This document shows, piece by piece, positions 9,438 through 23,234 of a DNA stretch of 64,000 nt. Location: contig CAVVLO010000001.1 of assembly GCA_963749155.1 (NCBI GenBank), forward strand, positions 1 through 64,000, given 5' to 3'. The notes below the pieces were generated by a model that saw nothing but the letters and a program-made list of their open reading frames with translations, ran no database searches and had not been told where the DNA came from. How positions within the stretch are numbered: the first letter of the stretch is position 1; the number at the start of each line of letters is the position of its first letter. Position numbers and translations under genes: made by a program. This DNA comes from an uncultured Armatimonadia bacterium. Its GTDB lineage: Bacteria > Armatimonadota > Zipacnadia > CAVVLO01.

Positions 9438-10837
9438 TAGGACGCTCCTTTTACCCGCATCAGGTAAAGGGTGCGTTCACTGCCGCTCACCGGCTGGCGG
9501 CGCATGATCTCATAACGCGCCTGGAAAGCCGCCTCGAAGCCTGCTTCCGTATAGTCAGGAAAAATATCCTCCCGACTGGCCAGCAGCTTCTGGACCTGCG
9601 AGTCTCTCTTGGGGACGAATTCGACGATGAGCCAATTGCCTGCGGCGGCGAAGAAATCCGCCAGTTGCGGCAGGGGCACATTGCCCGAGAGCGCCAGGTG
9701 ATGGACCAGCGCGAGCGCCATCACGACGTCCACCGGCCCGCGCTCAAGTAGAGAGGCCCGTTCCCGGTGATGCCAGCCCAGGGCAGGACTCGGGTTGGTA
9801 AGGTCCATCAGCAAGGGCAGCATCAGCGGCTGCGGAGATTGCTTGAGCGCCAGATAATGCTGTTCGACTGCTGCCGGGTCGATATCAAAGGCCACCGTAA
9901 AAGCGCCTGTTTCTGCCGCAATCCGGCTGAAGCGTCCGACATTGGCGCCCAGGTCCCAGACCGTCCGCGGCGCTACCTGTTCCACCAACTCTTGCACCAG
10001 TTTGGCTTTTTGGTCGAGGGCTTCATCGTTGTAATTCAACTGATTGTAGTAGTCAGCCCACTCGGTACCCTCGGGTCGCCACTTCAGGCCCTGGATGGCG
10101 CCCTTGAGAGTGTCAAGCAGCCCAGTCAGGCCCTGCCGCGATACCTTTCTTTGCGTTGCGCGCTCTTTGCCTTCCGGGCGGTCCGCCCATTTTTTCTGGC
10201 TGCGCGCGTGCATAAACAGGTGGATAGACAATCCCAGTTTGAACCGACACCGCCTGGGCAGCAGGCGGGTGGCCAAATCCAGCGGAACACCGTCCAGGTG
10301 CAGGGCAAGGAGCCGACCTAGCCGCACATCAACATAGGCCATCAAAGCAAGTGGAGCCAAAAAATGCTGACAGAATTGCTTGTAGCCTACCCACGGCTCG
10401 CCTTCCTGATAACGCTCAAAGGAGAGGGTGTCAATCAGCACCGGTCGCCCTTGGCAGAACTGGATATTGTAGGCGCTGGCGTCTTTGAGGCTCATCCCAT
10501 GCTTGAGGGCCAGCCGCTGGATACGTAAAGTGAGCAGAGCCGCGTCTTTTAGCTGGCTGAAGCACCACTCGTAGGGATAGCTAATCAGAGCCAGGGGTTC
10601 GGGCCTTATTACCTTCCAGGCTTCAGCGGTTGCCGCCAGGGCCAGGTCGACTTCCTCATGCGGCACTAGTAGCTTCTTTTCTAACAGTGCCTGGTAAAGC
10701 CCCGAACTCATCAGAAGCTCATAGTCATCGGCATAACGTTGGTTAACCTGTCGCAGCAACACTCCGTCCCGGTGGAAGAGGAAACCACTTGGGTCGCGAA
10801 AAGAGCCCCCTACTGACTTTGTCTCGAGCTCACTCAT
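9437..10837 (-). CDS. NoeA-like protein: N-terminal kinase-like domain + C-terminal class I SAM-dependent methyltransferase
   Basis: SFRDPSG N-terminus, YPYEWCF, LKDASAYNIQF and VLIDTLSFE; SAM motif VWDLGANVGRFS, AFDID, and DVVMALALVHHL. Confidence 0.75.
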   Translation of the reverse strand: MSELETKSVGGSFRDPSGFLFHRDGVLLRQVNQRYADDYELLMSSGLYQALLEKKLLVPHEEVDLALAATAEAWKVIRPEPLALISYPYEWCFSQLKDAALLTLRIQRLALKHGMSLKDASAYNIQFCQGRPVLIDTLSFERYQEGEPWVGYKQFCQHFLAPLALMAYVDVRLGRLLALHLDGVPLDLATRLLPRRCRFKLGLSIHLFMHARSQKKWADRPEGKERATQRKVSRQGLTGLLDTLKGAIQGLKWRPEGTEWADYYNQLNYNDEALDQKAKLVQELVEQVAPRTVWDLGANVGRFSRIAAETGAFTVAFDIDPAAVEQHYLALKQSPQPLMLPLLMDLTNPSPALGWHHRERASLLERGPVDVVMALALVHHLALSGNVPLPQLADFFAAAGNWLIVEFVPKRDSQVQKLLASREDIFPDYTEAGFEAAFQARYEIMRRQPVSGSERTLYLMRVKGAS

Positions 10838-11063
10838 CTTCGTCCTGCTCGTTTTCTGGAGGCGAACGCTTTACCCATCTGACGAGGTTCTTCCAAAAAA
10901 GCTTCAAGGCCACAAGCCCGCTTAGAGCCACGGCGATTACCGCCTGGAACAGGTAGCTTCCCGTGCCAGGGTCCAAATAAGCCTGGGCAGGAGGCTGGTC
11001 CAGCAACATTAGTGCGCAAAGCCCAACTCCCAGCCACTGACTGAACGATTTAAAAGACCGCAT
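10830..11063 (-). CDS. Small membrane protein (77 aa) with AYLDPGTGS motif
   Basis: ATG 11063 after AAGGAAGG; signal-like segment, AQA|YLDPGTGS, one TM helix, basic then acidic tail; overlaps the start of the NoeA-like gene. Confidence 0.72.
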   Translation of the reverse strand: MRSFKSFSQWLGVGLCALMLLDQPPAQAYLDPGTGSYLFQAVIAVALSGLVALKLFWKNLVRWVKRSPPENEQDEDE

Positions 11064-11277
11064 TGGCTTAGCCTTCCTTAGCCCTAGTCCGAGCTTGCTC
11101 CAGAGCAGCCGGGTCTGGCGCACTAGCCGGAGTTATCAAACTGTTAAGATATTTGTATTTTTGAGATTCTGATAACTTTCCTGATGTCCTCTAGATTCCA
11201 GTCAACTGACCGGCCCCTTGCCTTAGGTGGTTTCTACACTGGTTTATTAGGCTGCTGCACGAATTGTTATATTTCAT

Positions 11278-11306
11278 TTGCCGAATCCAAAGGGGCATGC
11301 TATAGT
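11278..11306 (+). promoter_or_regulatory. Putative sigma70-type promoter for the DUF485-actP operon
   Basis: TTGCCG (11278-11283), 17-bp spacer, TATAGT (11301-11306) with TG at 11298-11299 (extended -10), in an AT-rich divergent intergenic region. Confidence 0.5.
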
Positions 11307-11502
11307 GTGCAGCTAATATCGTTTTTTGGGCCAGGAACATGAGCTCCTGGCTCGGTTAATTTTACTGGATGAAACCTCCGTAAGGTGGAAGTGCCGCAAG
11401 ACAGGGCATTTCTGGCAAACAAGAAGTCTAATTTCCCGTTTCGAGTCAGGCCAAGGGCTTGGCGTACCAACTGAAAAGATCTGATTAGAAGGAGAGTGGA
11501 CC

Positions 11503-11796
11503 GTGCTTCACGAACCTGCAGCCCCAGTTGGCAAAGATGATGCGGCGCCTTACAAGGCAAAAGTGGGCGTCTGGATGTTCCTCCTGTATTCGCTACTTTA
11601 CGTCGGATTTGTGGCTATCAACCTCTTCAACCCGCTCCTGATGGAAAAAATCATTATGTTCGGACTCAACCTCGCTACCGTGTATGGCTTCCTCCTCATT
11701 GTCGGGGCGCTTATTCTGGCTCTGATTTATGACAAGCTTTGCCACAGGAAGGAATTGGCAATGCAAGAGCCATCTGCGAAAGAAGAGGGCAAATAA
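11503..11796 (+). CDS. DUF485 (YjcH-like) small two-TM protein accompanying ActP
   Basis: GTG after AAGGAGAG; two hydrophobic helices (LYSLLYVGFVAINL, GLNLATVYGFLLIVGALILALIY); directly upstream of a cation/acetate symporter. Confidence 0.8.
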   Translation: MLHEPAAPVGKDDAAPYKAKVGVWMFLLYSLLYVGFVAINLFNPLLMEKIIMFGLNLATVYGFLLIVGALILALIYDKLCHRKELAMQEPSAKEEGK

Positions 11797-11797
11797 T

Positions 11798-13711
11798 ATG
11801 GTAATCATCATCTTTTGCGCTTTCGTAGTCTTCGTCCTTGCCCTGTCCTTCTATCTGGGACGGAAGACCAAGACCTCGTCTGGTTACTATGCCGCTGGCG
11901 GGCAGATCCACTGGGCCGTCAACGGAATCGCTTTTGCCGGCGACTACCTGTCCGCCGCCTCCTTCCTGGGCATCTGCGGAATGATCGCAATGGTCGGTTA
12001 TGATGGATTCCTTTACTCCATCGGTTACCTCGCCGGCTGGATGGTGGCGCTTTTCGTGGTTGCCGAGCCTATGAAGCGGCTGGGCAAATACACCTTCACC
12101 GATGCGCTGGATTCGACCTTCCATTCACGCGGCATCAAACTGGCCGCCGCGATCAGCACCCTGGTCGTGTCCATCTGCTATCTGATTCCTCAGATGGTTG
12201 GCGCAGGCGTATTGGTCGAGCCACTGCTGGGCCTGGCCCAACACTGGGGCGTAATCCTCGTTGGCGCAATCGTTATCACCATTGTTGCCACCGCCGGTAT
12301 GGCTTCTACCACCTATGTCCAGTTTCTCAAGGGTGGCCTGCTGATTATTTTTTCGCTGATACTTGTAGTCGCGGTTTGTGTGCGCGGCTTCGACACAAAG
12401 CCTGACCAGGGGGGCAAAGTGCCCTTCTACGAATACAAGACCCTGGCGGCCCAGGAAGCTGGTGGTCAGCTTACTGTGACCGAGGCAGGCTGGCAGGTTG
12501 TCGAAGTGCAGGAAGTCTCAGCTGCTCACGCAACGATTGCCAGGCTCTCAAAAGACGGCCAGGAAACCTGGTGGCTCGTTAATCACGAAGGCGACCAGGT
12601 GTCGCTGAAAGAATCGCAGTCGGTTACCGTGACCAAGGACGGGCAGAAGTTCATCAACGGCGCTCTGGCCTCGCAAACCAATGAGCTGCGGCAGGTTGGT
12701 AACATAGAATTGTTGCGCGGCGAGGAAGTCCTGGAGAGGAAGAGTGTCTCTCCCTTCGCAATGCTGGCCGCGTTGACTGACAAAGACACGGTTGTGCGGC
12801 GCTGGAAGGAAGCCAAGCTGACCGACAAGGATGGCGGTAAGGTAACGGTCTATTTCCCGGCGCCGACCGCAGGCAATCAGTTGATGCGTCCTGGTCTCAA
12901 GTTCAAAGTACAGGGGACGCCGCTTGAGAAACTGGACTTCGTTTCGCTGATGCTTGCTCTCTTCCTGGGGACGGCAGCATTACCGCATATCCTCATCCGG
13001 TATTACACCGTGCCCAACCCGGCAAGCGCTCGCAAATCAACTATCGTGGCTATCGCTGCCATAGGTTTCTTCTACATCCTGACCCTGTTTATGGGTCTGG
13101 GAGCCGCCATCAACGGGGTAATGAATCCCGCGGACAGCAATATGGCGGCGCCGCTCCTGGCTCGTTCCTTCGGAGGCCTGCTTTTCGCCTTCATCTCGGC
13201 GATTGCCTTCGCGACGGTGCTGGGTACAGTAAGCGGCCTGATTGTGGCGGCTTCGGGCGCGGTGGCTCACGACTTCATCGACCGATTCCTGGATCGCAAG
13301 CTGGATGACCGGCAGAAGATCCGCGCTGGGAAGATCTCGGCCTTCGCGGTGGGCTTCCTGGCTATCATACTGGGCATCCTGTTCAAGGGGATGAACGTGA
13401 CCTTCCTGGTAGGCCTGGCCTTTGCCGTAGCGGCCTCGGCCAACCTGCCGTCCATAATCATGCTCCTGTTCTGGAAGAGGACGACCTCGCGAGGGATTAC
13501 CGCCTCCATCATAATGGGGATCGTCTCTTCCCTGGTGCTGATTGCCTTGTCACCGGACCTCTACAAGCTGTATGGGCTGGATCCGACTACAGCGCCAGTA
13601 CCGTTCACAAATCCTGGGATCATCTCAATACCGCTGAGTTTCATCACGCTCGTGGTAGTATCTCTAGTGACACCGCGCGATAGTAATGTGGTAGCTGAGA
13701 AAGCTTCCTGA
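11798..13711 (+). CDS. actP: Cation/acetate (monocarboxylate) symporter, sodium:solute symporter family, with a large hydrophilic insertion
   Basis: NGIAFAGDYLSAASFLG, AEPMKRLGKYTFTD, YLIPQMVGAG, GTAALPHILIRYYTV, AIAFATVLGTVSGL and AFAVAASANLP are ActP-family motifs. Confidence 0.85.
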   Translation: MVIIIFCAFVVFVLALSFYLGRKTKTSSGYYAAGGQIHWAVNGIAFAGDYLSAASFLGICGMIAMVGYDGFLYSIGYLAGWMVALFVVAEPMKRLGKYTFTDALDSTFHSRGIKLAAAISTLVVSICYLIPQMVGAGVLVEPLLGLAQHWGVILVGAIVITIVATAGMASTTYVQFLKGGLLIIFSLILVVAVCVRGFDTKPDQGGKVPFYEYKTLAAQEAGGQLTVTEAGWQVVEVQEVSAAHATIARLSKDGQETWWLVNHEGDQVSLKESQSVTVTKDGQKFINGALASQTNELRQVGNIELLRGEEVLERKSVSPFAMLAALTDKDTVVRRWKEAKLTDKDGGKVTVYFPAPTAGNQLMRPGLKFKVQGTPLEKLDFVSLMLALFLGTAALPHILIRYYTVPNPASARKSTIVAIAAIGFFYILTLFMGLGAAINGVMNPADSNMAAPLLARSFGGLLFAFISAIAFATVLGTVSGLIVAASGAVAHDFIDRFLDRKLDDRQKIRAGKISAFAVGFLAIILGILFKGMNVTFLVGLAFAVAASANLPSIIMLLFWKRTTSRGITASIIMGIVSSLVLIALSPDLYKLYGLDPTTAPVPFTNPGIISIPLSFITLVVVSLVTPRDSNVVAEKAS

Positions 13712-13730
13712 CCTGAACCAACTGTCAGAG

Positions 13731-13763
13731 GCGCGCCGGTGGGAATATCGCCTGCCGGCGCGT
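13731..13763 (+). other. Intergenic GC-rich stem-loop between actP and the nucleotidyltransferase gene
   Basis: GCGCGCCGGTGGG-AATATCG-CCTGCCGGCGCGT: 8 perfect pairs plus G-U pairs; no U-tract. Confidence 0.4.
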
Positions 13764-13791
13764 CCAGACCCGCGTGGGCGGAGAAGGAGAG

Positions 13792-16700
13792 ATGAAAGCC
13801 ACTACGCGAGTCGATCTCCACTGCCACTCTGTCTTCAGCGATGGCGCTCTTACACCCCGCGAAATCGCTGAGTTTCTCGCTGCCGAGGGAGTCGCGGTTG
13901 CGGCGCTGGTAGACCACGACTGTGTTGATGGCCTTCAGGAGTTTCGTCAGACACTGGCTCGTCGTGATGTGGGCTTCATAACTGGAGTCGAGATAACAAC
14001 CCAGTGTTGTGGGCAAGAAGCCCATCTGCTCGCTTATGGCTTCGATCCAACAAATCCCGAGCTGCTTTCAGTACTGCGTTCTCTGCGTCATTCCCGCGCG
14101 CCCGAAGTCCAGAGCATCGCAGGCTCTATCCGGCACAGAGGTTCGCCTGTCCTTGAAGAGGCTGGCGCCACCGAAGTCGGGCCCGAAGGTCGCCTTGATA
14201 TCCTCGAGGCAATCGCCCTGGTCCACCGGGCGGGAGGACGCGCCTTTCTTGCTCATCCCCTGCTGCTCAAAGCCGATCCTGACGAGCTGGAGCAACTTCT
14301 TGCTCAACTGAAAACTCAGGGGCTGGATGGCCTGGAGGCTATTTACGAGCCCTTCACTGAAGAGCAGCGAATTCTGCTGGTTGATATGGCCAGGCGCCTG
14401 GGCCTCCTGGTAAGCGCTGGAACAGACGCTCACGACCGTAAACCTCAAAAGCAACTGCCTTCGGAATGGATATGCCCACCGACCTCTGGAAGGCTTTCCG
14501 CGATGCCGTCAGTTCCGGTAGCGCTCCCTCTCAGAGGCGAGCCCTCTAGAGTCATTCCCAAACGTCCTCGGGCCCGCCTCAACTGGAGAGATTTCACTTT
14601 CCATTTCGTTTTTCCCACCTTGCTGGCCATCGGGCTGTTTATCACCGCGATATATGCGGTCTTCCTGCCGACCTTCGAGAAGTCGCTTCTCGATCGCAAA
14701 CGAGAGATGATCAGGGAACTCACAAACTCCGCCTGGAGCATCCTCAATGGCTATGAGAAAGATGCGCTCGCCGGGAGGATGACCCGCGCTCAGGCCCAGT
14801 CTCTGGCTATCTCGCGGATTGAGCTGCTGCGTTATGGCCGAGATGGGAAAGACTACTTCTGGCTGCAGGACTTCAAGCCCAGGATGATTATGCATCCTTA
14901 TCGCAAGGATCTGAACGGCACGGATGTCTCGAACTTTCGAGATCCCCGGGGCGTGCAGATATTCGTCGAGTTCGCCGAGTTGGTCCGGCGAGGGCGCGAG
15001 GGCTATGTCGAGTATGTCTGGCAATGGAAAGACGATCCAAGTCGCCTCGTGCCCAAAGAGTCGTATATAAAAGAATTTGAGCCCTGGGGCTGGATAATCG
15101 GCACAGGTATCTATGTCGAAGACGTCAACCAGGAGATAGCCCTGATTGAAGGGAGCCTGGTTCGGACAGCCCTGGGTATCTCGATTATCGTGGTGCTGCT
15201 GCTGTTTTACGTAATGCGCCAAAGCCTGGGCCTCGAGCGCGAAAGGGCAGATGCCGAAGAGAGCCTCTACGAGTCTACAGAACGCTATCGGTCACTGGTG
15301 GAGGCCACCACCGAAGGCACCTTGCTGGTGATGGAAGGCCGCTGCCGGTATGCCAATCCCATCTTCCTCGAGCTTATCGGCCGCACGCAGGAAGAACTCG
15401 AGCTGCTTGACCTGTCAGACCTGTTCCCAGAGCTTGAAGGCAATGAGGTCGCCTGGGGCTACCTCAAGGCTCTGCTTGCCGGAGAAGAGGTGACTGAGGG
15501 CTTCGATGCGGTTATCCGCAGGCGTGACGGGGCGCTTATCGAGTGCGTTATGGCTGCCAGCCGAATGGCCTTCGCTGAACGAAACGGCTTTATCCTGCTG
15601 GCCAGGAGAGTCTCTCACTCTCTTGGCGGTGGAAGAAGGGAGTCCGGCTGGCGCTATCTGCAGCAGGTGGTCGATAGCGCTCTGGTTGGGCTTTTCCGGG
15701 CGCGCGCCACTTCGAGGGGCACCCTGCTCGAGTTCAACGAGGCCGCAGCTCAGCTTCTCGGAGTGCCTGGCGCCTCTGAGGACAACCCGATTATGCTGGC
15801 TGACGTTTTTGCGGATTCCAAAGCCTATGAGGAGTTCCTCCTCGAGCTGCAGCGCAAGGGAAAAGCCAGCCACAGATTGCACCTTACCACCCAGGCGCCC
15901 AGCAGCCGGACCGTTGCCCTGGCGGCGATCCTGGAAAGAGACGAACAAGGGAATCCGCGCTTCATCGATGGGGTTGTCGAGGACATCACGCTTCAAGCCA
16001 GCCAGCAGAGCGAACTCGAAAAGGTTATTGAGAAGCTGCAGACATCGCTGCTCTTCCTTCACGAGCCTGTCAGCCATATTGGGCGAAGCGCGGTCTTCTG
16101 TAAACTGGAAGCTTCGATACTGACTGTCGCCCGTCAGATGAGCGATCAGCAATCCAGCGCGGCACTGGTCGAGGCAGAGGGCGGCAACGTTGTCGGTATT
16201 GTGACCGATGGAGATATCCGAAAGCGCGTTGTGGCCGCCGACCTGGATCACCACGAACCGGTCAGCCGAATTATGAGCGCTCCCCTGGTGGTTATCTCGG
16301 AGCAGGCCCAAATCTACGAGGCGCTGCTACTGATGGAGCAGCGCGGGGTACAGCATTTGGCTGTGGCTGATGAGACTGGGCGTATTGTGGGAGTAATACG
16401 CAACCAGGAGCTGCTGCAGTTCCGCAGTTATGGGCCAATTGTGCTTTCGCGCGAGGTTCAGCAGGCCGATACTCCCGAGGAGGTAGCCAGGCACTGCCTG
16501 CGCGTGCCTGGCCTGGCGAAGTCTCTCCTCGACAGTGGCGCTCATCCACATCAGGTTACCAGGATGATCTCTTCGGTGTGCAATGCCGCGACCATGCGAC
16601 TGATTGCCCTGGCCGAGGAGAAACTGGGCCCGGCTCCGGTGCCTTATGCCTTCCTGGCCTTGGGCAGTCATGGACGGCAAGAGATGACCCTGACCAGCGA

Positions 16701-17481
16701 CCAGGATAATGCCATCATCTACTCTGCGCCGGCCGAGCCTGAAGCGCAACTTGCGGCCGAAAGCTATCTGCACGAGCTGGGCGTCTTTGTGTGTGAGGGA
16801 CTGGACAAGGCAGGCTACAAGTTTTGCTCTGGCAACGTGATGGCCCAGAATCCTCGCTGGTGCCAGCCTGTCGCTAGCTGGAAGCAGTATTTCTCCAACT
16901 GGATAAATTTGCCCGAGCCCAGGCAACTGCTGGAGTTCACCATCTTCTTCGACTTCCGGCCTGTGTATGGCTCGGTGGAGCTTGCGCAGGAACTGCGCCG
17001 TCATGTGTTTGGAGAACTGCGAGCGCAGCCTGCTTTCTACCCCCATTTCGCTCAGAACTCTCTGCTATTCAAGCCTCCAACCCGGTTGCTTGGCCGGATT
17101 ATTTCTGGCGGGGCGGGCGGAGACCATCCTGGATCGCTCGATTTGAAGGATGCCTTGATGCCGCTGGTGAGCTTTGCCAGGCTTTATGCCCTCCGGTTGG
17201 AGATGGACGACACCCATACTACCAACCGGGTAGAGGCGCTTGTAGAGCACGATGTCCTGCAGGAATCGAGCGGACAGGAAATCCTCACCGCTTATGACTT
17301 CCTTATGAGACTACGGTTGCAACATCAGGCTTCGAAGCTGGCCTCGGGTCAGGTTGCCGATAACACCATCAATTATCGAGGGCTTGGCCAGACCGAACGG
17401 ACTCTGCTCAATCAGTCCTTTGCCCAGATTACCGCTGTTCAAAAGCGTATCAGCTACGACTTCCTGGGTGGGACAGTCTAG
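13792..17481 (+). CDS. Multidomain membrane signalling protein: PHP phosphoesterase, TM, single Cache (sCache_2-like), TM, PAS-like x2, CBS pair, DUF294 GlnD/GlnE-like nucleotidyltransferase + substrate-binding domain
   Basis: ATG 13792 after AAGGAG. PHP: DLHCHSVFSDG, DHD, GVEIT, LAHP, GTDAH. Cache: YFWLQD..MIMHPY..GYVEYVWQW..PWGWIIGTGIY. CBS: GIVTDGDIRKRVVA, IMSAP, HLAV. NTase: ALGSHGRQEMTLTSDQDNAII. C-terminal DLK..P..ARLYAL. Confidence 0.85.
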   Translation: MKATTRVDLHCHSVFSDGALTPREIAEFLAAEGVAVAALVDHDCVDGLQEFRQTLARRDVGFITGVEITTQCCGQEAHLLAYGFDPTNPELLSVLRSLRHSRAPEVQSIAGSIRHRGSPVLEEAGATEVGPEGRLDILEAIALVHRAGGRAFLAHPLLLKADPDELEQLLAQLKTQGLDGLEAIYEPFTEEQRILLVDMARRLGLLVSAGTDAHDRKPQKQLPSEWICPPTSGRLSAMPSVPVALPLRGEPSRVIPKRPRARLNWRDFTFHFVFPTLLAIGLFITAIYAVFLPTFEKSLLDRKREMIRELTNSAWSILNGYEKDALAGRMTRAQAQSLAISRIELLRYGRDGKDYFWLQDFKPRMIMHPYRKDLNGTDVSNFRDPRGVQIFVEFAELVRRGREGYVEYVWQWKDDPSRLVPKESYIKEFEPWGWIIGTGIYVEDVNQEIALIEGSLVRTALGISIIVVLLLFYVMRQSLGLERERADAEESLYESTERYRSLVEATTEGTLLVMEGRCRYANPIFLELIGRTQEELELLDLSDLFPELEGNEVAWGYLKALLAGEEVTEGFDAVIRRRDGALIECVMAASRMAFAERNGFILLARRVSHSLGGGRRESGWRYLQQVVDSALVGLFRARATSRGTLLEFNEAAAQLLGVPGASEDNPIMLADVFADSKAYEEFLLELQRKGKASHRLHLTTQAPSSRTVALAAILERDEQGNPRFIDGVVEDITLQASQQSELEKVIEKLQTSLLFLHEPVSHIGRSAVFCKLEASILTVARQMSDQQSSAALVEAEGGNVVGIVTDGDIRKRVVAADLDHHEPVSRIMSAPLVVISEQAQIYEALLLMEQRGVQHLAVADETGRIVGVIRNQELLQFRSYGPIVLSREVQQADTPEEVARHCLRVPGLAKSLLDSGAHPHQVTRMISSVCNAATMRLIALAEEKLGPAPVPYAFLALGSHGRQEMTLTSDQDNAIIYSAPAEPEAQLAAESYLHELGVFVCEGLDKAGYKFCSGNVMAQNPRWCQPVASWKQYFSNWINLPEPRQLLEFTIFFDFRPVYGSVELAQELRRHVFGELRAQPAFYPHFAQNSLLFKPPTRLLGRIISGGAGGDHPGSLDLKDALMPLVSFARLYALRLEMDDTHTTNRVEALVEHDVLQESSGQEILTAYDFLMRLRLQHQASKLASGQVADNTINYRGLGQTERTLLNQSFAQITAVQKRISYDFLGGTV

Positions 17482-17586
17482 CGCAGGCACTTTGCCCCCA
17501 GGATAATTCGCCCGCAGGACGCTTCTTCAGCCTGGCGAACCTTCTCCCGGTATAAAGGCACTTGCTTCAATTAGGGAGGAGACCTT

Positions 17587-18897
17587 ATGGACCGCCTGAT
17601 GCTTTGGACTTTATTCCTGCTTGCTTTCTCCGCTTTGTTATACGCCAATCCGATGGCGCCTTCCAAATCAGTGAACGCAGTCGACTTCGGCGTGGTGGCC
17701 GATGGCGTGACGCCTGCCTCCGACGCCTTGCAGCAGGCGATTGCCGGGACAGGGGGCGGGGGCGGAGTTGTCCACCTGCCTGCCGGCGTGATGGTGCTGG
17801 ACAAGACCGTCACCATACCTGAGAACGTCCTGCTACTGGGCGAAGGAGCCTGTTGGGAGAACACCACCAGCACCTTCCACGTGAAGCATAGGGACGGGCC
17901 GGCCTTCAAGCTGTTCAGCTACTGTGGTATCAAAGGTGTCGGCATCTATTACCCCGACAACCTCACCGACGAGAAGATGATAACTCCCGACCAGTATCCC
18001 CCAGCGGTAGAACTCTGGGGCTGCAATGTGACGCTGGAATATATCAACTTCGATGGGCCGTGGATTGCAGTCTCGACAGCCCCGGGCGGCGCTAACGCTG
18101 GCCAGTGCCTGTTCAGCAACATCAATGGGTTCGCCCATCACAGGGGCTTCCATATGTCGGGCGGGATGGATATCAACCGGTTTGAGAACATCCACTGGTT
18201 CCCCTCCAGACTGAATCCGGCAGGCTCCTATGCCAGAGACAACCTGGTGGCCTTCGAATTCGGCCGGCAAGATGGCGTGATGATGACCAACTGCTTCATC
18301 ATTGGGGGCAAGACGTTCCTCCACCAGCTTCAGCACGGCGACGATGGCAAATATGCGCCTTCACTTGGCTACAATATCTACGGCTCGTGGATTGAGGCGG
18401 TAGATTATGGTTTCATCTTCGAAGGCGTCTGTGGATTCAACATCATCGGCGGTAACATCCTCATCAGGAAGGGCGGCACCGGCATCAAGGTATATCCCGA
18501 ATGTCTGGCCTGGAACGCGTTGATAAGCGGCGTGCAGATAAGAGGCTTTGGCGGCGACCAGCCTTTTGTGGGTATTGATTATGATATGCAACAGCAATAT
18601 TGGACCCCTAGTGGGCTCAACAGGCTAACCATCACCGACTGCCAGATCCAGAATGGTATGCCTGCCATCCGGCTTGGCAGCAAGTCGGTCAGGACCTTCA
18701 TCCGGGGCAATCTGCTGATGGGCGCAGAGGGTTATCCGGCTATCCAGGTGGACGAGGGCGCCGACCTGTTCACCATAACGGATAACATCTTGCAGCAGCG
18801 ACCAAGCGGCGAGACCGAACAACCTCCGGTCATCGTGGACAATAGCGGTGAGGTACAGAAGGTCCTTCGCGACAACCTGGTGGAGGAGCCGGACTAG
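17587..18897 (+). CDS. Secreted right-handed beta-helix protein (pectate-lyase-3/GH28-related superfamily)
   Basis: GGAGGA RBS; signal peptide; VNAVDFGVVADGVT..ALQQAI..GGVVHLPAG..IPENVLLLGEG N-terminal motif; repetitive short beta-strands. Confidence 0.75.
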   Translation: MDRLMLWTLFLLAFSALLYANPMAPSKSVNAVDFGVVADGVTPASDALQQAIAGTGGGGGVVHLPAGVMVLDKTVTIPENVLLLGEGACWENTTSTFHVKHRDGPAFKLFSYCGIKGVGIYYPDNLTDEKMITPDQYPPAVELWGCNVTLEYINFDGPWIAVSTAPGGANAGQCLFSNINGFAHHRGFHMSGGMDINRFENIHWFPSRLNPAGSYARDNLVAFEFGRQDGVMMTNCFIIGGKTFLHQLQHGDDGKYAPSLGYNIYGSWIEAVDYGFIFEGVCGFNIIGGNILIRKGGTGIKVYPECLAWNALISGVQIRGFGGDQPFVGIDYDMQQQYWTPSGLNRLTITDCQIQNGMPAIRLGSKSVRTFIRGNLLMGAEGYPAIQVDEGADLFTITDNILQQRPSGETEQPPVIVDNSGEVQKVLRDNLVEEPD

Positions 18898-18952
18898 ACG
18901 CGCTTGCCAGGCAGCCCTGCGCGCTGGTTGCCCGAACTGGAGGAACGAACTG

Positions 18953-20977
18953 ATGGTTAGCCTGGGCCGGTCTTCGCTTCTGCTTTGCTGTTTGCTGCTA
19001 GCCTTGTGCGCGCGCGCAAGGGCTGGTTCAGGTTCGCTTTCTGTGGGAACGAGCGAGCTTGGCGTTGCCCTCGATGAGAATCGAGGTTATGCCCTGGCCT
19101 CGGTCTGGGTAGGTGGGGTCGAGTTTCCAGGTGGCGGCGCCTTTCCCTGCTTCACCCTTTATGATGCAACGGGGAAAGAAGAGGCCTTCCGAGCCGATGA
19201 CCCGCGCTGGCAGACGGAAAGCAGGCAGCTAGAACAGGGCGTGAGGATACGCTACACCTGTGAGGGTTTCAGCGCGGATGTCGATTATGAGCTGGCCAAA
19301 GGACTCCTCACCATCACCGCAACGCCGCGTGAGGAAACCAGTCAGAAAGTCAGGTTGCTGTCAGACGGCGGAAGGCTGGTCTCAATACCGGATAGTCTTC
19401 CCGGCGCAGAAGCGACGGGATTCCTCATCAAGCCCCATTGTTCGGGCGAGTTGATACTTTTCCCCCAAGACAAGGAAGTGCGCGAGATTAGCGAGGCCCA
19501 GTCCTGGACTTACCAGGCGAGTTTCTTCGGGCTGGGCTACAACGGTCACGGATTGATTGTGCGCTGTCCCCAGTTCGGCGCGGTCTGGACCGCCGGCACA
19601 GGAGAGGTGAACGGCGAATATTCGCTTTATGGCGGGGTAGCCGCCGATTTCCGGCCTCGTCACGATGATCCGGCCAGGACTACTTACCCCTTCTGGGAGA
19701 TGCCCCTCATCGAGCCGAAGCTCGAACTCCAGCTTGTACCGGTGGCAGATGCCAACGGCGATGGCGTCTTCAACTGGGTGGACGTCGGTGTGACTTATCG
19801 AAGGAAGTTTATCAAGCGCAATCCCCACCTGGACAAGTCAGAGCTGGAATCTGTTGGGGGCAAGATTGATATTGCCGACCAGTTCGAAGGCAATCTCAAT
19901 TATGCGCAGCTCATCGAGCAAATAAGGACGGTAGATTTTGCGAAGCAGCGCTGGTGGCTTGTCGGGACACATACTGCGCCCGGCCGTCATTTCTGCGACC
20001 CACCTTTCACTGACAGTCCTGATGCCAGTCACGATGGACCAGGAGGCTATGACTATTTCGCCTTCAAACGTGATGCGGCTGCTGTGGGGGCGAAGATCGG
20101 CTTGCACGAGATGTTCCAGGACACCAGCCCTTCATGTGGGCCTGGCTGGGACAGTATGCCGCTCAAGCGCTATGAGACGGGCGACCTGGCCGCTACTTTT
20201 GGAGGCGAGTGGAACGGGCGCGACTGGATAGATTATGGCAAAGCCCTGAACGTGATGGTCGCCGACGGAAGCTTCTTCGGTACGCTGGACGCTCATCTGA
20301 AACGCTGGCAAGTGGGCGAAGGGGACACCTGGCACTGGGATGTCCTGACGGCGCAGGGCGGCTCGTCGGACTTTTCGCTCGATCACCCGACAACCCACGG
20401 GGCGGACCTGCGCACGAGGATCGAGATCCTGAAGTACTTCGAGCAGAAGGGTATCTATATGACCAGCGAGGGCCTTCAAGAGGGGCTCTCCGAGCACTGT
20501 GACTTCAGTTATGTCGCGCAAGCCGACCCCTTGTTCAAGAGCCAGTTTGCCGCTGGCGAGGTGGTGCCGTTGATCCCTGTGCTCTTCCAGGGCATGACCT
20601 ATTACTCTCCAGGCTGGGGCAGCACTGCCTGGACCTTGCTGCACGGGGCAAAGGCCCAATGGGAGTCGGTGGCTCCAGCCGACCGCGAGGTGTGGCTGAG
20701 CGCCTATTTTGGGTCCGTGGTTTTCTGGGCACAGATCGCCGACCGCACGGTAAGCAACCTGATAAAGACGCCAAAGGGCTGGGACGTCCACTATACCGAG
20801 GGCGGACGCCTGTTAGTAGACCTGACCAACGAAACGCCGGGCGAGGGGATCATCCTGGAGCTTGAGGGCAAGCGTTATACCCCTGACAATCCGCCCCCTA
20901 GCGTCTCGGGCATAAAAGCCAGGCGAGTCAAAGGCAAGTATGTACCGACCTACCCGCCGGATTGGACTGGCCCCTAG
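18953..20977 (+). CDS. Secreted glycoside hydrolase-like protein, distantly GH101/GH129 (alpha-N-acetylgalactosaminidase)-like
   Basis: ATG 18953 after GGAGG; signal peptide; DANGDGVFNWVDVGVTYR recalls the GH101 DxNxDGxVDWQDGA linker; IGLH..QD, WDV and YMTSEG fit a TIM-barrel GH. Confidence 0.45.
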   Translation: MVSLGRSSLLLCCLLLALCARARAGSGSLSVGTSELGVALDENRGYALASVWVGGVEFPGGGAFPCFTLYDATGKEEAFRADDPRWQTESRQLEQGVRIRYTCEGFSADVDYELAKGLLTITATPREETSQKVRLLSDGGRLVSIPDSLPGAEATGFLIKPHCSGELILFPQDKEVREISEAQSWTYQASFFGLGYNGHGLIVRCPQFGAVWTAGTGEVNGEYSLYGGVAADFRPRHDDPARTTYPFWEMPLIEPKLELQLVPVADANGDGVFNWVDVGVTYRRKFIKRNPHLDKSELESVGGKIDIADQFEGNLNYAQLIEQIRTVDFAKQRWWLVGTHTAPGRHFCDPPFTDSPDASHDGPGGYDYFAFKRDAAAVGAKIGLHEMFQDTSPSCGPGWDSMPLKRYETGDLAATFGGEWNGRDWIDYGKALNVMVADGSFFGTLDAHLKRWQVGEGDTWHWDVLTAQGGSSDFSLDHPTTHGADLRTRIEILKYFEQKGIYMTSEGLQEGLSEHCDFSYVAQADPLFKSQFAAGEVVPLIPVLFQGMTYYSPGWGSTAWTLLHGAKAQWESVAPADREVWLSAYFGSVVFWAQIADRTVSNLIKTPKGWDVHYTEGGRLLVDLTNETPGEGIILELEGKRYTPDNPPPSVSGIKARRVKGKYVPTYPPDWTGP

Positions 20978-21044
20978 GTCGATTTGACCTGGTGAGAGCA
21001 CTGCAAGAGAATGAACCGGACGAATCCGGTCTGGAGGGAAGCAG

Positions 21045-23234
21045 ATGAGCCTGGTCAGGACTGGCGGCACTTCAGGTGGGAAGGGCAACTGGCGACGGCA
21101 GGTCTTGAGGTTGGCAGGTGCTCTCCTGGGAGGACTGGTCTGCCTCTGTGCCCAGTGTGCCCCAGCGGCGGATGAGTCTGTTTCCAGTTCCGCTCCAAAG
21201 GACTGGCTGGACGAGGTGCAAACCTGGTGCATGGTGCCCGTGCTGCCCGAGACCGCACGAGCCCTCCACGTGACAGTAAACGGAGTCTGGGGCGGCATCG
21301 GCGGCATCAATCCTCTGTTAACCCATCGAGAAGTCGTGTCCGAAGTCGAAGCCACTTATGGAGACAACGTCGCAGCTTTCGTAGCCGCCTGCCGAGAGGC
21401 TGGGCTTCTTGTGCCGGGCATTGTTAATGGGATAGAAGGCTTCCTTACGTTGCGCGCCGTCTGGCCTGACCTGGATGAGATGGCCTGCTGGAACGCCGCT
21501 GGCAAACCAGCCCAGGTCAGCGACGAGATGCTCCTGATGTGCGTGAACAACCCCAACTGGCAGCAGTGGGAGCTTGACTGGGGCAAGCGCGCTATCGACG
21601 AGGGGGCCGACCTGGTGATGCTGGATACGCCGATGAGCGCTTCCTTCATCAGCGGTTTTCTCAAAGCGGGATTCTGCCCCCACTGCCTGGCAAATTTCCA
21701 ACAATACCTGGAGAATAAATACACCGAGAAAGAACTCAAAGAACGATTTGGGCTGGAGACCTTCGACCCGCAGAAGGTCATCGCCCTTCTCGCACCGCTG
21801 CAAGACCTCTCTAGCCCAGCGAACCGCCCACACCACAACTCGAGCAAGGAAGATCTGCTGTTTCGCGAGTTCATCTACTGCCAGGAGCAGGCCAGCTTCG
21901 ACACACGCAAGAAATTGCTAAGCGAGTTGCGAGAATATGCGGCTGCCCAGGGGCGGCAGGTGGCTTTCGCGACCAATGCGAGCGATCTGGGTACGGTGAA
22001 TCCCGGCGGCCACTGGGTACGAGCGCTTATGTTCGCGGACCTCGTCGACCTGTTTGTCTATGAGCAAAATCCCGAGCCCGAGGGGATGATGTCCAACCAG
22101 GCGATGAAATATCCTCGTGGCAAAGGGGTGGCTTATCACAAGCTTGCTCAGGCCATCCACCACCGGCGGGCTCCAGCGGTCATCCATGCCAGTCAGATGG
22201 GCGCTGTGCTTGTTGATGTGCTGACCAAAGGCGTCACCACCAACTCGTGGTTCGAGGCGCAGTCGGCCGAGGCATATGCCACTAATGGGGCTTATGTGCA
22301 GTATTACGTTTCGCCCGACAGCGTTAAGCGTCTATTCCTGGAGAAGTGCTGGTCGGGTTCGGCGGAACACGCCAGGTTTGTGCTCTCCCACCGCGACCTG
22401 TATGAGGGAGAGCTGCGCTCTGGCTCGTTGCTCGGGGTGCTATTCCTTTACAATGAGCGTGGTCGAACCATCCCAGGTGTATATCCCTCATATCTGGGCT
22501 TCGCGCAGGGGCTTGCGGAGGGCAACTACCCCTTCGACGTAGTTTTCGCCGGAGACGGTCATTATGTCCAGGACCGACTCGCTGCCAGTGACCTGGCGCC
22601 CTACCGCGTCCTGCTCGTGCCCAGTCCCATCGTGCCGACACCAGGCCAGCAACAGGTGGTCCGAGACTATGTGACCAGTGGTGGTACGGTGGTATGTCAG
22701 GAGCCAGAGGCCCTGGGGCTCTCGGCAGCTCTGGAAGCTCGAGACCCGGATATGCCCACCTGCGTCGAAGGGCAGTTCAGCCTGGGCAAGGGGCAGGTGC
22801 TGGTGCTGCGGGGCGAAGTCTCACCGACCTGGACGGATGACGTGGGTTCGAACTACTTCCGCACTTATGAGCCCAGGTTGCGTGATGAGATCGGTCGTCT
22901 GGCCGAGACACTAGGGCTGGAGCGCGTGCTGCCCGAGCAGTCTGATGGCCTGGTCACTGCCTACCCCTTACTGCAACCTGAACGGCACCGGGTTGTGGTG
23001 CACCTGGTGAACTGTGACATCGATTATGAGCACGATATGGTTAGAGAAAAGCCATCTGTCACTGTGCAGGTTGATGCTCCGAGTTATATGAGAGGCAAGC
23101 TAACGGCGCAACTCTACACAGCAGGTGGATCACTCGAATCGCTGGAGGTGATTCTGGCGGAAGGGCGGTTATCTTGCCTGGTGCCGCGCCTTGGCAGCTA
23201 CGCCTCCCTTGTATTGACCAGTCAGGAACCCTAG
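21045..23234 (+). CDS. Secreted glycoside hydrolase-like protein (TIM barrel + GH42-type trimerisation/class I GATase-like domain)
   Basis: GGAGGG RBS; hydrophobic N-terminus; MCVNNPNW, GADLVMLD, GFCPHCLANF; C-terminal PFDVV..DLAPYRVLLVP..VRDYVTSGGTVV and VVHLVN. Confidence 0.55.
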   Translation: MSLVRTGGTSGGKGNWRRQVLRLAGALLGGLVCLCAQCAPAADESVSSSAPKDWLDEVQTWCMVPVLPETARALHVTVNGVWGGIGGINPLLTHREVVSEVEATYGDNVAAFVAACREAGLLVPGIVNGIEGFLTLRAVWPDLDEMACWNAAGKPAQVSDEMLLMCVNNPNWQQWELDWGKRAIDEGADLVMLDTPMSASFISGFLKAGFCPHCLANFQQYLENKYTEKELKERFGLETFDPQKVIALLAPLQDLSSPANRPHHNSSKEDLLFREFIYCQEQASFDTRKKLLSELREYAAAQGRQVAFATNASDLGTVNPGGHWVRALMFADLVDLFVYEQNPEPEGMMSNQAMKYPRGKGVAYHKLAQAIHHRRAPAVIHASQMGAVLVDVLTKGVTTNSWFEAQSAEAYATNGAYVQYYVSPDSVKRLFLEKCWSGSAEHARFVLSHRDLYEGELRSGSLLGVLFLYNERGRTIPGVYPSYLGFAQGLAEGNYPFDVVFAGDGHYVQDRLAASDLAPYRVLLVPSPIVPTPGQQQVVRDYVTSGGTVVCQEPEALGLSAALEARDPDMPTCVEGQFSLGKGQVLVLRGEVSPTWTDDVGSNYFRTYEPRLRDEIGRLAETLGLERVLPEQSDGLVTAYPLLQPERHRVVVHLVNCDIDYEHDMVREKPSVTVQVDAPSYMRGKLTAQLYTAGGSLESLEVILAEGRLSCLVPRLGSYASLVLTSQEP

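Follow-up and report, generated by a model that had tools for sequence, protein, structure and literature searches.

In a window of 64,000 nucleotides (nt) from an uncultured Armatimonadia bacterium (positions 1 to 64,000 of contig CAVVLO010000001.1, assembly GCA_963749155.1), three genes on the + strand at 11503-17481 encode, according to the list of open reading frames (ORFs) and their translations, a DUF485 protein, an ActP-type symporter, and a receptor of 1229 amino acids (aa). The receptor carries a PHP phosphoesterase domain, a Cache domain, and a DUF294 nucleotidyltransferase (NTase) in one chain, and it is a variant of the known but unexplained module that combines COG2905 proteins with an exonuclease. 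We propose, with belief and doubt about evenly balanced, that this receptor is a carboxylate-gated writer/eraser, which reversibly nucleotidylates a protein hydroxyl and tunes carboxylate uptake or assimilation.

In the proposed mechanism, a C2 or C3 carboxylate would bind the Cache domain outside the cell, and inputs from the PAS and CBS domains would modulate the response. The ligand would shift the balance of two opposing activities within one polypeptide, a logic like that of GlnD, which consists of an NTase, an HD hydrolase, and sensor domains. The NTase would add a nucleoside monophosphate (NMP) to the hydroxyl of a protein target, the PHP domain would hydrolyze that phosphodiester again, and the output would be a post-translational tuning of uptake or assimilation. 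The writer/eraser reading was drawn from the GlnE/DrrA fold of the NTase, the layout of writer, hydrolase, and sensor, and the tight linkage to a transporter.

Domain architecture, sensor, and catalytic modules

The receptor ORF extends from a GTG at 13774 to 17481, and residue numbers are counted here from 13774. The probable start of the gene (13792..17481, +) is the ATG at 13792, behind GGAGAAGGAGAG; the resulting 1229 aa equal the length of a database relative with 96% identity (P0004). Pfam and hydropathy analyses confirmed the domain order given in the initial annotation, PHP-TM-sCache_2-TM-PAS-PAS-CBS pair-DUF294-DUF294_C (TM, transmembrane segment). All of these features lie on the + strand. 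The N-terminal PHP domain (13792..14478) matched at residues 14-85 (9.9e-8). A hydropathy scan placed the first transmembrane segment at residues 274-302 (14593..14679), preceded by the basic stretch RPRARLNWRD, and the second within residues 455-488 (15154..15237); between them lies the sCache_2 domain (14680..15141; PF17200 at residues 307-456, 4.6e-33, 114.8 bits). Since the two hydrophobic segments flank the Cache domain, the PHP domain and all parts past the second segment are predicted to be cytoplasmic, with the Cache domain facing outward. Two PAS-like domains follow (15271..16008; PAS, PF00989, at 503-612, 1.5e-11; PAS_8, PF13188, at 628-677, 5.4e-11; also TIGR00229), and then a CBS pair, or Bateman module (16081..16428; PF00571 in two stretches, 1.1e-16). 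The C-terminal part consists of the DUF294 NTase core (16501..16920; PF03445 at 910-1049, 1.3e-44, 151.9 bits against a cut-off of 21) and the helical DUF294_C domain (17032..17463; PF10335 at 1087-1230, 7.7e-35, 120.3 bits against 22.5). As initially annotated, no kinase, GGDEF, or DNA-binding family was matched in the receptor by Pfam at E <= 0.01. The cyclic-nucleotide-binding domain PF00027 likewise gave no match at E <= 0.01, and its place is occupied by PHP-TM-Cache-TM and the two PAS domains.

The Cache domain matched PDB entries 4k08 (Adeh_3718) and 5g4y (PscD) with E values of ~1e-33. According to the accessible text of the PscD report, this chemoreceptor binds glycolate, acetate, propionate, and pyruvate, and its propionate is held by Tyr90, His103, Tyr143, and Lys156, with Trp92 and Trp145 stacked and Phe126 behind (PMC5062169). 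A HMMER alignment to 5g4y revealed that the receptor has all seven ligand-contact residues of PscD, as Y361, W363, H374, F397, Y414, W416, and K428, and these seven pocket residues were invariant in 57 of 57 full-length relatives. The Cache domain was also the most conserved domain among these 57 relatives, with 75 of 162 columns at least 90% identical, compared with 50 of 229 in the PHP domain and 33 of 146 in the NTase core. The linker from the PHP domain to the first transmembrane segment was unconserved (0/37 columns), and the CBS pair was absent from variants of ~950-990 aa, which keep PHP, Cache, and NTase. We strongly infer from the sequence that the Cache domain is a C2/C3-carboxylate sensor, in agreement with the sensing of acetate or similar acids proposed for it initially.

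The motifs LGSHGRQE and SDQD are present in the NTase, and the Pol-beta NTase residues G964-S965, D976-x-D978, and D1060 were conserved in 56-57 of the 57 relatives. An AlphaFold model of residues 745-1235, based on a 60-row alignment, reached a predicted local distance difference test score (pLDDT) of 88. Its closest Foldseek matches were DrrA (6yx5_B) and the GlnE halves 3k7d and 1v4a (E 1e-9 to 1e-8, probability 1.00). When the model was compared without Foldseek, by VIA-align, with 48,161 representative chains, the Z scores were 26.9 (1v4a), 26.2 (6yx5_B), and 26.0 (3k7d_B) over 295-329 aligned residues; the remaining listed rows were CBS pairs (Z 13-17), save for a second DrrA entry, 3l0i (Z 12.9). 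These matches indicate that the NTase module is a GlnE/DrrA-type enzyme by fold, and the GlnD/GlnE-type assignment of the initial annotation therefore stands, with the catalytic residues of both PHP and NTase intact. To our knowledge, every characterized member of this fold class adenylylates or uridylylates a protein tyrosine, reversibly. At the sequence level, the Pfam families GlnE and GlnD_UR_UTase gave no match in the receptor at E <= 0.01, and one soluble DUF294 relative had a faint GlnD_UR_UTase match (0.008). DUF294_C belongs to the same Pfam clan as GlnD_UR_UTase and is grouped with the C-terminal domains of GlnD and GlnE in the available part of an earlier report (PMC3710099).

The PHP assignment of the initial annotation was confirmed and could be refined with NCBIfam to the TrpH/YciV type, the type of RNase AM and Cv1693. 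The NCBIfam models of 3',5'-nucleoside bisphosphate phosphatase (NF041577, 7.6e-37) and of RNase RNM (NF047791, 6.8e-31) were matched with 127 and 107.5 bits, against equivalog cut-offs of 400 and 375, respectively. Sequence matches in the PDB were 2yb1, 3e0f, 9etk, and 7ug9, all aligned, and the same four entries headed the Foldseek results for the AlphaFold model of the domain (3e0f, 7ug9, 9etk, 2yb1; E ~1e-16 to 1e-17; pLDDT 85). The metal ligands H16, H18, D23, H48, E73, H84, H161, D218, and H220 were conserved in 56-57 of 57 relatives. The insertion domain is ~40 residues shorter than that of Cv1693, and the model has a pLDDT of only 54-60 there. The two arginines that open it are partly conserved (R105 in 44/57 relatives, R108 in 32/57). 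In RNase AM, a 5'-3' exoribonuclease and deFADding enzyme, the insertion domain helps to form the pocket for the 5'-phosphate and base, with Arg107, Arg110, Arg141, and Phe161, according to the accessible text of PMC9410882. In the receptor, the shortening of this insertion would leave open the pocket in which the 5' nucleotide normally sits. The same genome also has a TrpH/RNase AM-like PHP gene that stands alone (C2:420041-420880, 146 bits to our PHP hidden Markov model (HMM)), and therefore the fused PHP domain is a specialized paralogue and not the housekeeping copy.

Exchange of hydrolase partners beside DUF294

The initial annotation had called for an architecture search, and PHP in the same chain recurred widely among the best 120 database clusters: nearly all were ~1200-1270 aa long, and all but about a dozen shared the Pfam set of the receptor. 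Such a recurrence of one architecture is far more than chance would give. Their database names were only 'DUF294 nucleotidyltransferase-like' or 'PAS domain S-box' protein. For the genomic context, the best 80 of 157 confirmed matches from a scan with one genome per species were used (fused loci). By their record titles, these came from Armatimonadota, Planctomycetota, Verrucomicrobiota, Chloroflexota, Acidobacteriota, KSB1, Latescibacterota, Fibrobacterota, and a Clostridia bin. Within the phylum of the window, 10 of 151 genomes had a strong DUF294 match, all in ORFs of 1208-1351 aa as judged by ORF length only; DUF294 matches were also found in 44 of 301 Bacillota genomes and 13 of 251 Acidobacteriota genomes.

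Soluble relatives with the architecture cNMP_binding-CBS-CBS-DUF294-DUF294_C, ~610-650 aa long, were ~35% identical to the receptor over residues 760-1235. In a tree, the NTases of the fused receptors formed one clade against the soluble sample, with a support of 1.0. Annotated plasmid records of Vibrio pelagius and Hymenobacter revealed a soluble DUF294 gene beside an RNase_T-type exonuclease gene, abutting it in V. pelagius and overlapping it in Hymenobacter. In Paracoccus and Skermanella, the soluble DUF294 gene stands behind a pair of DUF4212 and sodium:solute symporter (SSS) genes, with acs further upstream in Paracoccus.

Whether PHP and the DEDDh exonuclease exclude each other was a question raised by the initial annotation. 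HMMs of both enzymes were built from seed loci and run on all ORFs, with the soluble set providing the training sequences for the exonuclease HMM. All 80 fused loci had PHP in the same ORF and none had a DEDDh exonuclease within 3 kb. Among 80 soluble loci from a metagenome scan (alignment A1), none had PHP in the same ORF, and an exonuclease was present within 3 kb in 62; of the 48 loci whose flanks both extended for 1 kb or more, 42 had one. The exonuclease was also found in 31 of 39 Bacillota loci, where one RNase_H_2-type and one Metallophos gene were seen in addition, and in 7 of 8 soluble loci of Acidobacteriota. The Bacillota loci were 39 of 50 listed places, from which ORFs of ~370 aa, one locus already in the set, and some lower rows had been left out. 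A fused PHP and a neighboring DEDDh exonuclease thus excluded each other beside DUF294. Independent clustering of the flank ORFs and a Pfam scan of the neighbors revealed no exonuclease beside the fused genes, and the DUF294-type exonuclease HMM had no match in the genome of the window.

Four receptors of the Cache-PAS-(CBS)-DUF294 type lacked PHP (L206, L209, L210, and L211). In three of them (L206, L209, and L211, not L210), a calcineurin-like Metallophos gene adjoined the receptor gene, and in L209 and L211 it separated the ActP gene from that of the receptor, a place that corresponds to the fused PHP of the window protein. Among the best 150 representatives for residues 270-1235, PHP-extended and PHP-less receptors were both frequent, with at least one short entry being a truncated gene call. 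As judged by sequence and gene context, PHP would be a functional stand-in for the DEDDh exonuclease of the soluble systems and for Metallophos in the PHP-less Cache receptors. The use of three unrelated phosphoesterase folds in the same position is most simply explained by a common need to cleave the product of the NTase.

The same data bear on a different account, the least probable of those considered here, in which PHP and NTase are no opposing pair. PHP would do an unrelated job, such as the local clearing of pAp or nanoRNA, and its fusion would serve co-regulation alone; alternatively, either PHP or the NTase would be a non-catalytic regulator. The scores below both equivalog cut-offs, the reduced insertion domain, and the unconserved linker to the first transmembrane segment fit this account. 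It conflicts with the conservation of the PHP metal ligands and NTase carboxylates, with the strict replacement of one another by PHP, DEDDh, and Metallophos beside DUF294 in four samples, which is hard to explain without a functional link, and with the stand-alone TrpH-like PHP that the genome already has.

Several further genes were observed around the soluble systems. One Holophagales genome contains both a PHP-fused receptor and a soluble cNMP-CBS-DUF294 gene of 611 aa, with a match to the exonuclease HMM directly downstream of the latter; for the Holophagales genome G152, that of locus L021, the coordinates listed are C10:156221-156616 and C17:58268-58630. A conserved protein of ~170 aa with a hydrophobic N-terminus, conserved Cys residues, and no Pfam match is encoded between the soluble DUF294 gene and a long exonuclease gene (470-730 aa) in 28 metagenome loci within L103-L164, at L082:7380-7961, and at L083:7385-7882. 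Neither the fused nor the Bacillota loci had it, nor did the genome of the window, and it could be an accessory or a target of the soluble systems. In four Bacillota loci, a family of very hydrophobic proteins of 140-171 aa, again with no Pfam match, stands directly upstream of the cNMP-CBS-DUF294 gene (L191:6397-6912(-), L192:3618-4040, L198:3461-3934, and L174:2249-2680), and in three of these four the acetyl-CoA synthetase gene follows directly downstream. In the Bacillota loci L176, L180, L183, L188, and L190, the DUF294-exonuclease pair is directly preceded by a gene of the aconitase family, which suggests that the link to organic-acid metabolism is not limited to acetate.

Transporter linkage, candidate targets, and alternative products

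The linkage to DUF485 and ActP noted in the initial annotation is conserved. ActP adjoined the receptor in 55 of the 80 fused loci and was 70-87% identical to the window ActP; it was directly upstream on the same strand in 51 loci, directly downstream in three, and ~0.9 kb upstream in one. In four further loci a divergent SSS gene was next door, in 13 ActP was absent from the available flank, and in eight the flank was too short to judge. DUF485 stood upstream of ActP in 50 of 80 loci. All-against-all clustering of the flank ORFs revealed no other family in more than 7 of the 80 loci, and therefore the conserved unit consists of DUF485, ActP, and the receptor. A Pfam scan of 37 neighbors from the 20 loci with no ActP in view, short flanks included, returned mixed housekeeping genes and no exonuclease. 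In three Verrucomicrobiota-type bins (L059, L062, and L066), orphan PHP-fused receptor genes were flanked by those of EPSP synthase and a PfkB kinase, and no transporter gene was visible nearby, indicating that the receptor can exist apart from ActP.

DUF485, the first gene of the cassette (11503..11796, +; YjcH-like; PF04341, 3.3e-7, 30.6 bits against a cut-off of 28), encodes a small subunit with two hydrophobic segments and an N-terminal cytoplasmic tail, in which His3, Asp12, Tyr17, and Lys18 are conserved (numbering of alignment A5). The ActP/MctC-type sodium:solute symporter (11798..13711, +; PF00474, 3.6e-66 in two stretches) is the sole ActP of its genome. Its ORF spans 11729-13711 with the first ATG at 11729; the probable start is the ATG at 11798, one base past the DUF485 stop, where the alignment of 34 relatives also begins. 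The symporter scored 448.7 bits (2.4e-134) with the NCBIfam model of MctC (NF058657; equivalog cut-off 670) and 337.5 bits (5.9e-122) with that of ActP (TIGR02711; cut-off 1099), the match being split by an insertion of ~180 aa. This insertion (12386..12922, +) follows the sixth hydrophobic segment, splits the SSF match as well, and is predicted to be extracytoplasmic from hydropathy and the N-out rule for the topology of the SSS family. Canonical ActPs of the same phylum (523-570 aa) are without the insertion and align in two pieces around it. The insertion belongs to no known family that we could find, and its best score in the ESM Atlas was 0.80, with none at 0.9 or above.

A phmmer search with the insertion matched 53 fused loci, none of the 80 soluble loci, and none of a set of 40 comprising the Bacillota loci and L207. 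It also matched the PHP-less Cache receptor loci L209-L211, the Cache-type locus L220, and L216, which has a CBS-DUF294 gene of 590 aa. In the 151-genome sample of the phylum, insert-bearing ActPs with at least 75% identity occurred only in receptor-bearing genomes, in 8 of 10 such genomes, and two remoter ones (57-60% identity) were found in genomes with no strong DUF294 match. Since the insertion is almost confined to the loci of Cache receptors, a physical unit of receptor and transporter is attractive. In such a signaling unit, the ActP insertion would dock on the Cache domain, the NTase would reversibly nucleotidylate DUF485 or ActP, for example at the conserved tyrosine of the DUF485 tail, and PHP would erase the mark. 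We regard this complete scheme as improbable. A complex prediction with ActP (637 aa), DUF485 (97 aa), and the TM-Cache-TM part of the receptor (223 aa), each with a 35-row alignment, gave a score of 0.00 and a mark of 0.32, and thus no verdict. If the scheme is true, it would provide the first case of a transporter whose gating depends on AMPylation or UMPylation, and the exonuclease-fold partners of the DUF294 family would be protein de-nucleotidylases.

More generally, DUF485/ActP is the sole conserved candidate target encoded in cis, and we consider it unlikely, if less so than the full scheme above, to be the target of the writer/eraser. In Paracoccus and in five Bacillota loci, soluble DUF294 genes have acs as a neighbor; acetyl-CoA synthetase is therefore an equally good candidate in trans, and it or another protein encoded elsewhere is an equally possible target.

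Several points weigh against a protein-directed writer/eraser. A shared fold is no proof of a shared substrate class. RNase_T-family enzymes are exonucleases, the characterized members of the PHP subfamily and of the DEDDh partner family have nucleotides or short RNAs, and not modified proteins, as their substrates, and we know of no PHP or DEDDh relative that serves as a protein de-nucleotidylase. The cassette contains no conserved candidate target beyond the transporter, and the transporter itself is missing in the 13 loci mentioned above. Each of the two sets, fused and soluble, was collected by queries that had its architecture, and the presence of PHP in 80 of 80 fused loci arises partly by construction. 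In the open-access literature and bioRxiv, we found no paper on the PHP-Cache fusion and none giving an activity for DUF294. The soluble homologues Pflu5625 of Pseudomonas fluorescens and PP_0354/PP_0353 of P. alloputida are described, in the accessible portions of two reports, as members of the CrbS/R (MxtR/ErdR) acetate regulon with uncharacterized function, whose mutants have a mild phenotype or none (PMC5715377; bioRxiv 10.64898/2026.09.07.749794).

Because the relatives of the hydrolases act on nucleotides or RNA, another option, which the initial annotation had also named and to which we assign a modest chance, stays alive. The NTase would join an NMP to a small acceptor, a nucleotide or a metabolite, and thereby make a messenger of a linear, dinucleotide-like kind or an NMP adduct, which PHP, or elsewhere DEDDh or Metallophos, would degrade, and the carboxylate would set its level. 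Metallophos enzymes include nucleotide phosphodiesterases, and the lack of a conserved protein target other than the transporter fits such a synthase/degrader. A published exchange of PHP for DEDDh also speaks for it: RNase AM, a PHP enzyme, is a diribonuclease that can stand in for the DEDDh enzyme Orn on dinucleotides, according to the available text of PMC11528712. The fold of the NTase, in turn, is closest to protein adenylyltransferases, and no chain of the cGAS/DncV, OAS, CCA, or poly(A)-polymerase type was among the 50 listed entries, an absence that is not an exclusion. Two further points count against a messenger: the genes nearby encode neither a receptor nor an effector for it, and the PHP insertion domain, the part that contributes the nucleotide pocket in RNase AM, is shortened and poorly modeled. 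In their chemistry, the two views differ little. A DEDDh exonuclease frees 5'-NMP from R-O-P-O5'-N, in which R might be a protein side chain. If a messenger is made, it would be a new nucleotide signal tied to the metabolism of short-chain acids.

Pol-beta-type NTases also include RNA-tailing enzymes, and a remodeling of RNA ends was considered. In this case, the NTase would tail a specific RNA 3' end (of a tRNA, a small RNA, or the operon mRNA), the nuclease domain would trim it, and the carboxylate would control RNA stability or translation. We judge this very improbable, if a shade less so than the account in which the two domains are unpaired. The partner hydrolases do come from exoribonuclease families. 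Nevertheless, Pfam detected no RNA-binding domain in the receptor, the enzymes nearest in fold modify proteins, three of the four PHP-less receptors have a metallophosphoesterase in place of the nuclease, and the membrane anchoring would be an odd place for RNA tailing. Nor did an Rfam scan of 10800-17900 yield a match at E <= 1. A conserved leader or riboswitch was dropped as a candidate, since no 9-mer of the 400-nt leader was common to four or more of 34 relatives.

Surroundings of the cassette and comparison with known systems

The gap from the ActP stop to the receptor start is 80 nt, and no terminator-like site was listed between them in the scan; the receptor gene is very likely co-transcribed with DUF485 and ActP. 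A promoter-like site lies at 11278-11306, followed by a hairpin with an 11-bp stem and a T-rich tail at 11326-11355, ~150 nt ahead of DUF485. In one sediment metatranscriptome, a run that contained a twentieth of the sampled words, three contigs of 151 nt, at least 99% alike, fell within the receptor gene (13982-14273 and 14554-14704) and covered 453 nt. They give a weak hint that the receptor gene is transcribed, and could be DNA carry-over. Downstream of the receptor, a pectate-lyase-like protein is encoded at 17587-18897, followed by two large ORFs (18848-20977 and 21045-23234) that matched neither Pfam nor NCBIfam, and sulfatase-like and methyltransferase-like genes lie upstream of the cassette on the opposite strand. 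None of these flanking genes (17587-23234 and the upstream pair) recurs beside the receptor in its relatives.

The fused receptor is a ligand-addressable and self-contained version of the DUF294 system. It makes the system easier to attack, with a predictable ligand, writer and putative eraser in one chain, and a transporter pair as the sole conserved neighbors. Should the writer/eraser reading be true, nucleotidylation would join the known outputs of one-component receptors, and PHP, DEDDh, and calcineurin-like phosphoesterases would be interchangeable as erasers.

With the COG2905 and RNase_T systems, the receptor shares the CBS pair-DUF294-DUF294_C module at ~35% identity, the association with an SSS carboxylate symporter and its small membrane subunit, in some cases also with acs, and the pairing with a metal-dependent phosphoesterase. 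Unlike them, it is membrane-bound and has sCache_2 and two PAS domains instead of a cNMP-binding domain. Its hydrolase is a fused PHP and not a separate DEDDh gene (0/80 loci), and its transporter consists of DUF485 and an insert-bearing ActP, whereas DUF4212 and a VC_2705-type symporter were found in 39 of the 80 soluble loci.

The fold of an NTase core plus a helical domain is shared with GlnE and DrrA (Z 26-27). Like GlnD and GlnE, the window protein joins a writer, a putative opposing activity, and ligand-sensing domains in one chain; it differs in that the putative eraser is PHP in place of an HD domain or a second domain of the NTase type, and in that it is membrane-anchored with an external sensor. 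RNase AM (YciV/TrpH) and Cv1693 are the best matches of its PHP barrel in sequence and structure and share all ligands of the trinuclear site, but the insertion in the receptor is ~40 residues shorter, the scores are below both equivalog cut-offs, and the domain is fused to a receptor. The sCache_2 chemoreceptors PscD, Adeh_3718, and McpP likewise carry the sensor domain between two transmembrane segments, and all seven contacts of PscD are found in the window protein, whose output is NTase/PHP and not a signaling domain of methyl-accepting chemotaxis proteins or a histidine kinase. The PHP-less Cache-PAS-CBS-DUF294 receptors (L206, L209, and L211) have the same sensor and NTase architecture. 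They share the insert-bearing ActP in L209-L211 and DUF485 in L209 and L210, and they differ in that their hydrolase is a separate Metallophos gene, whereas that of the window is the fused PHP.

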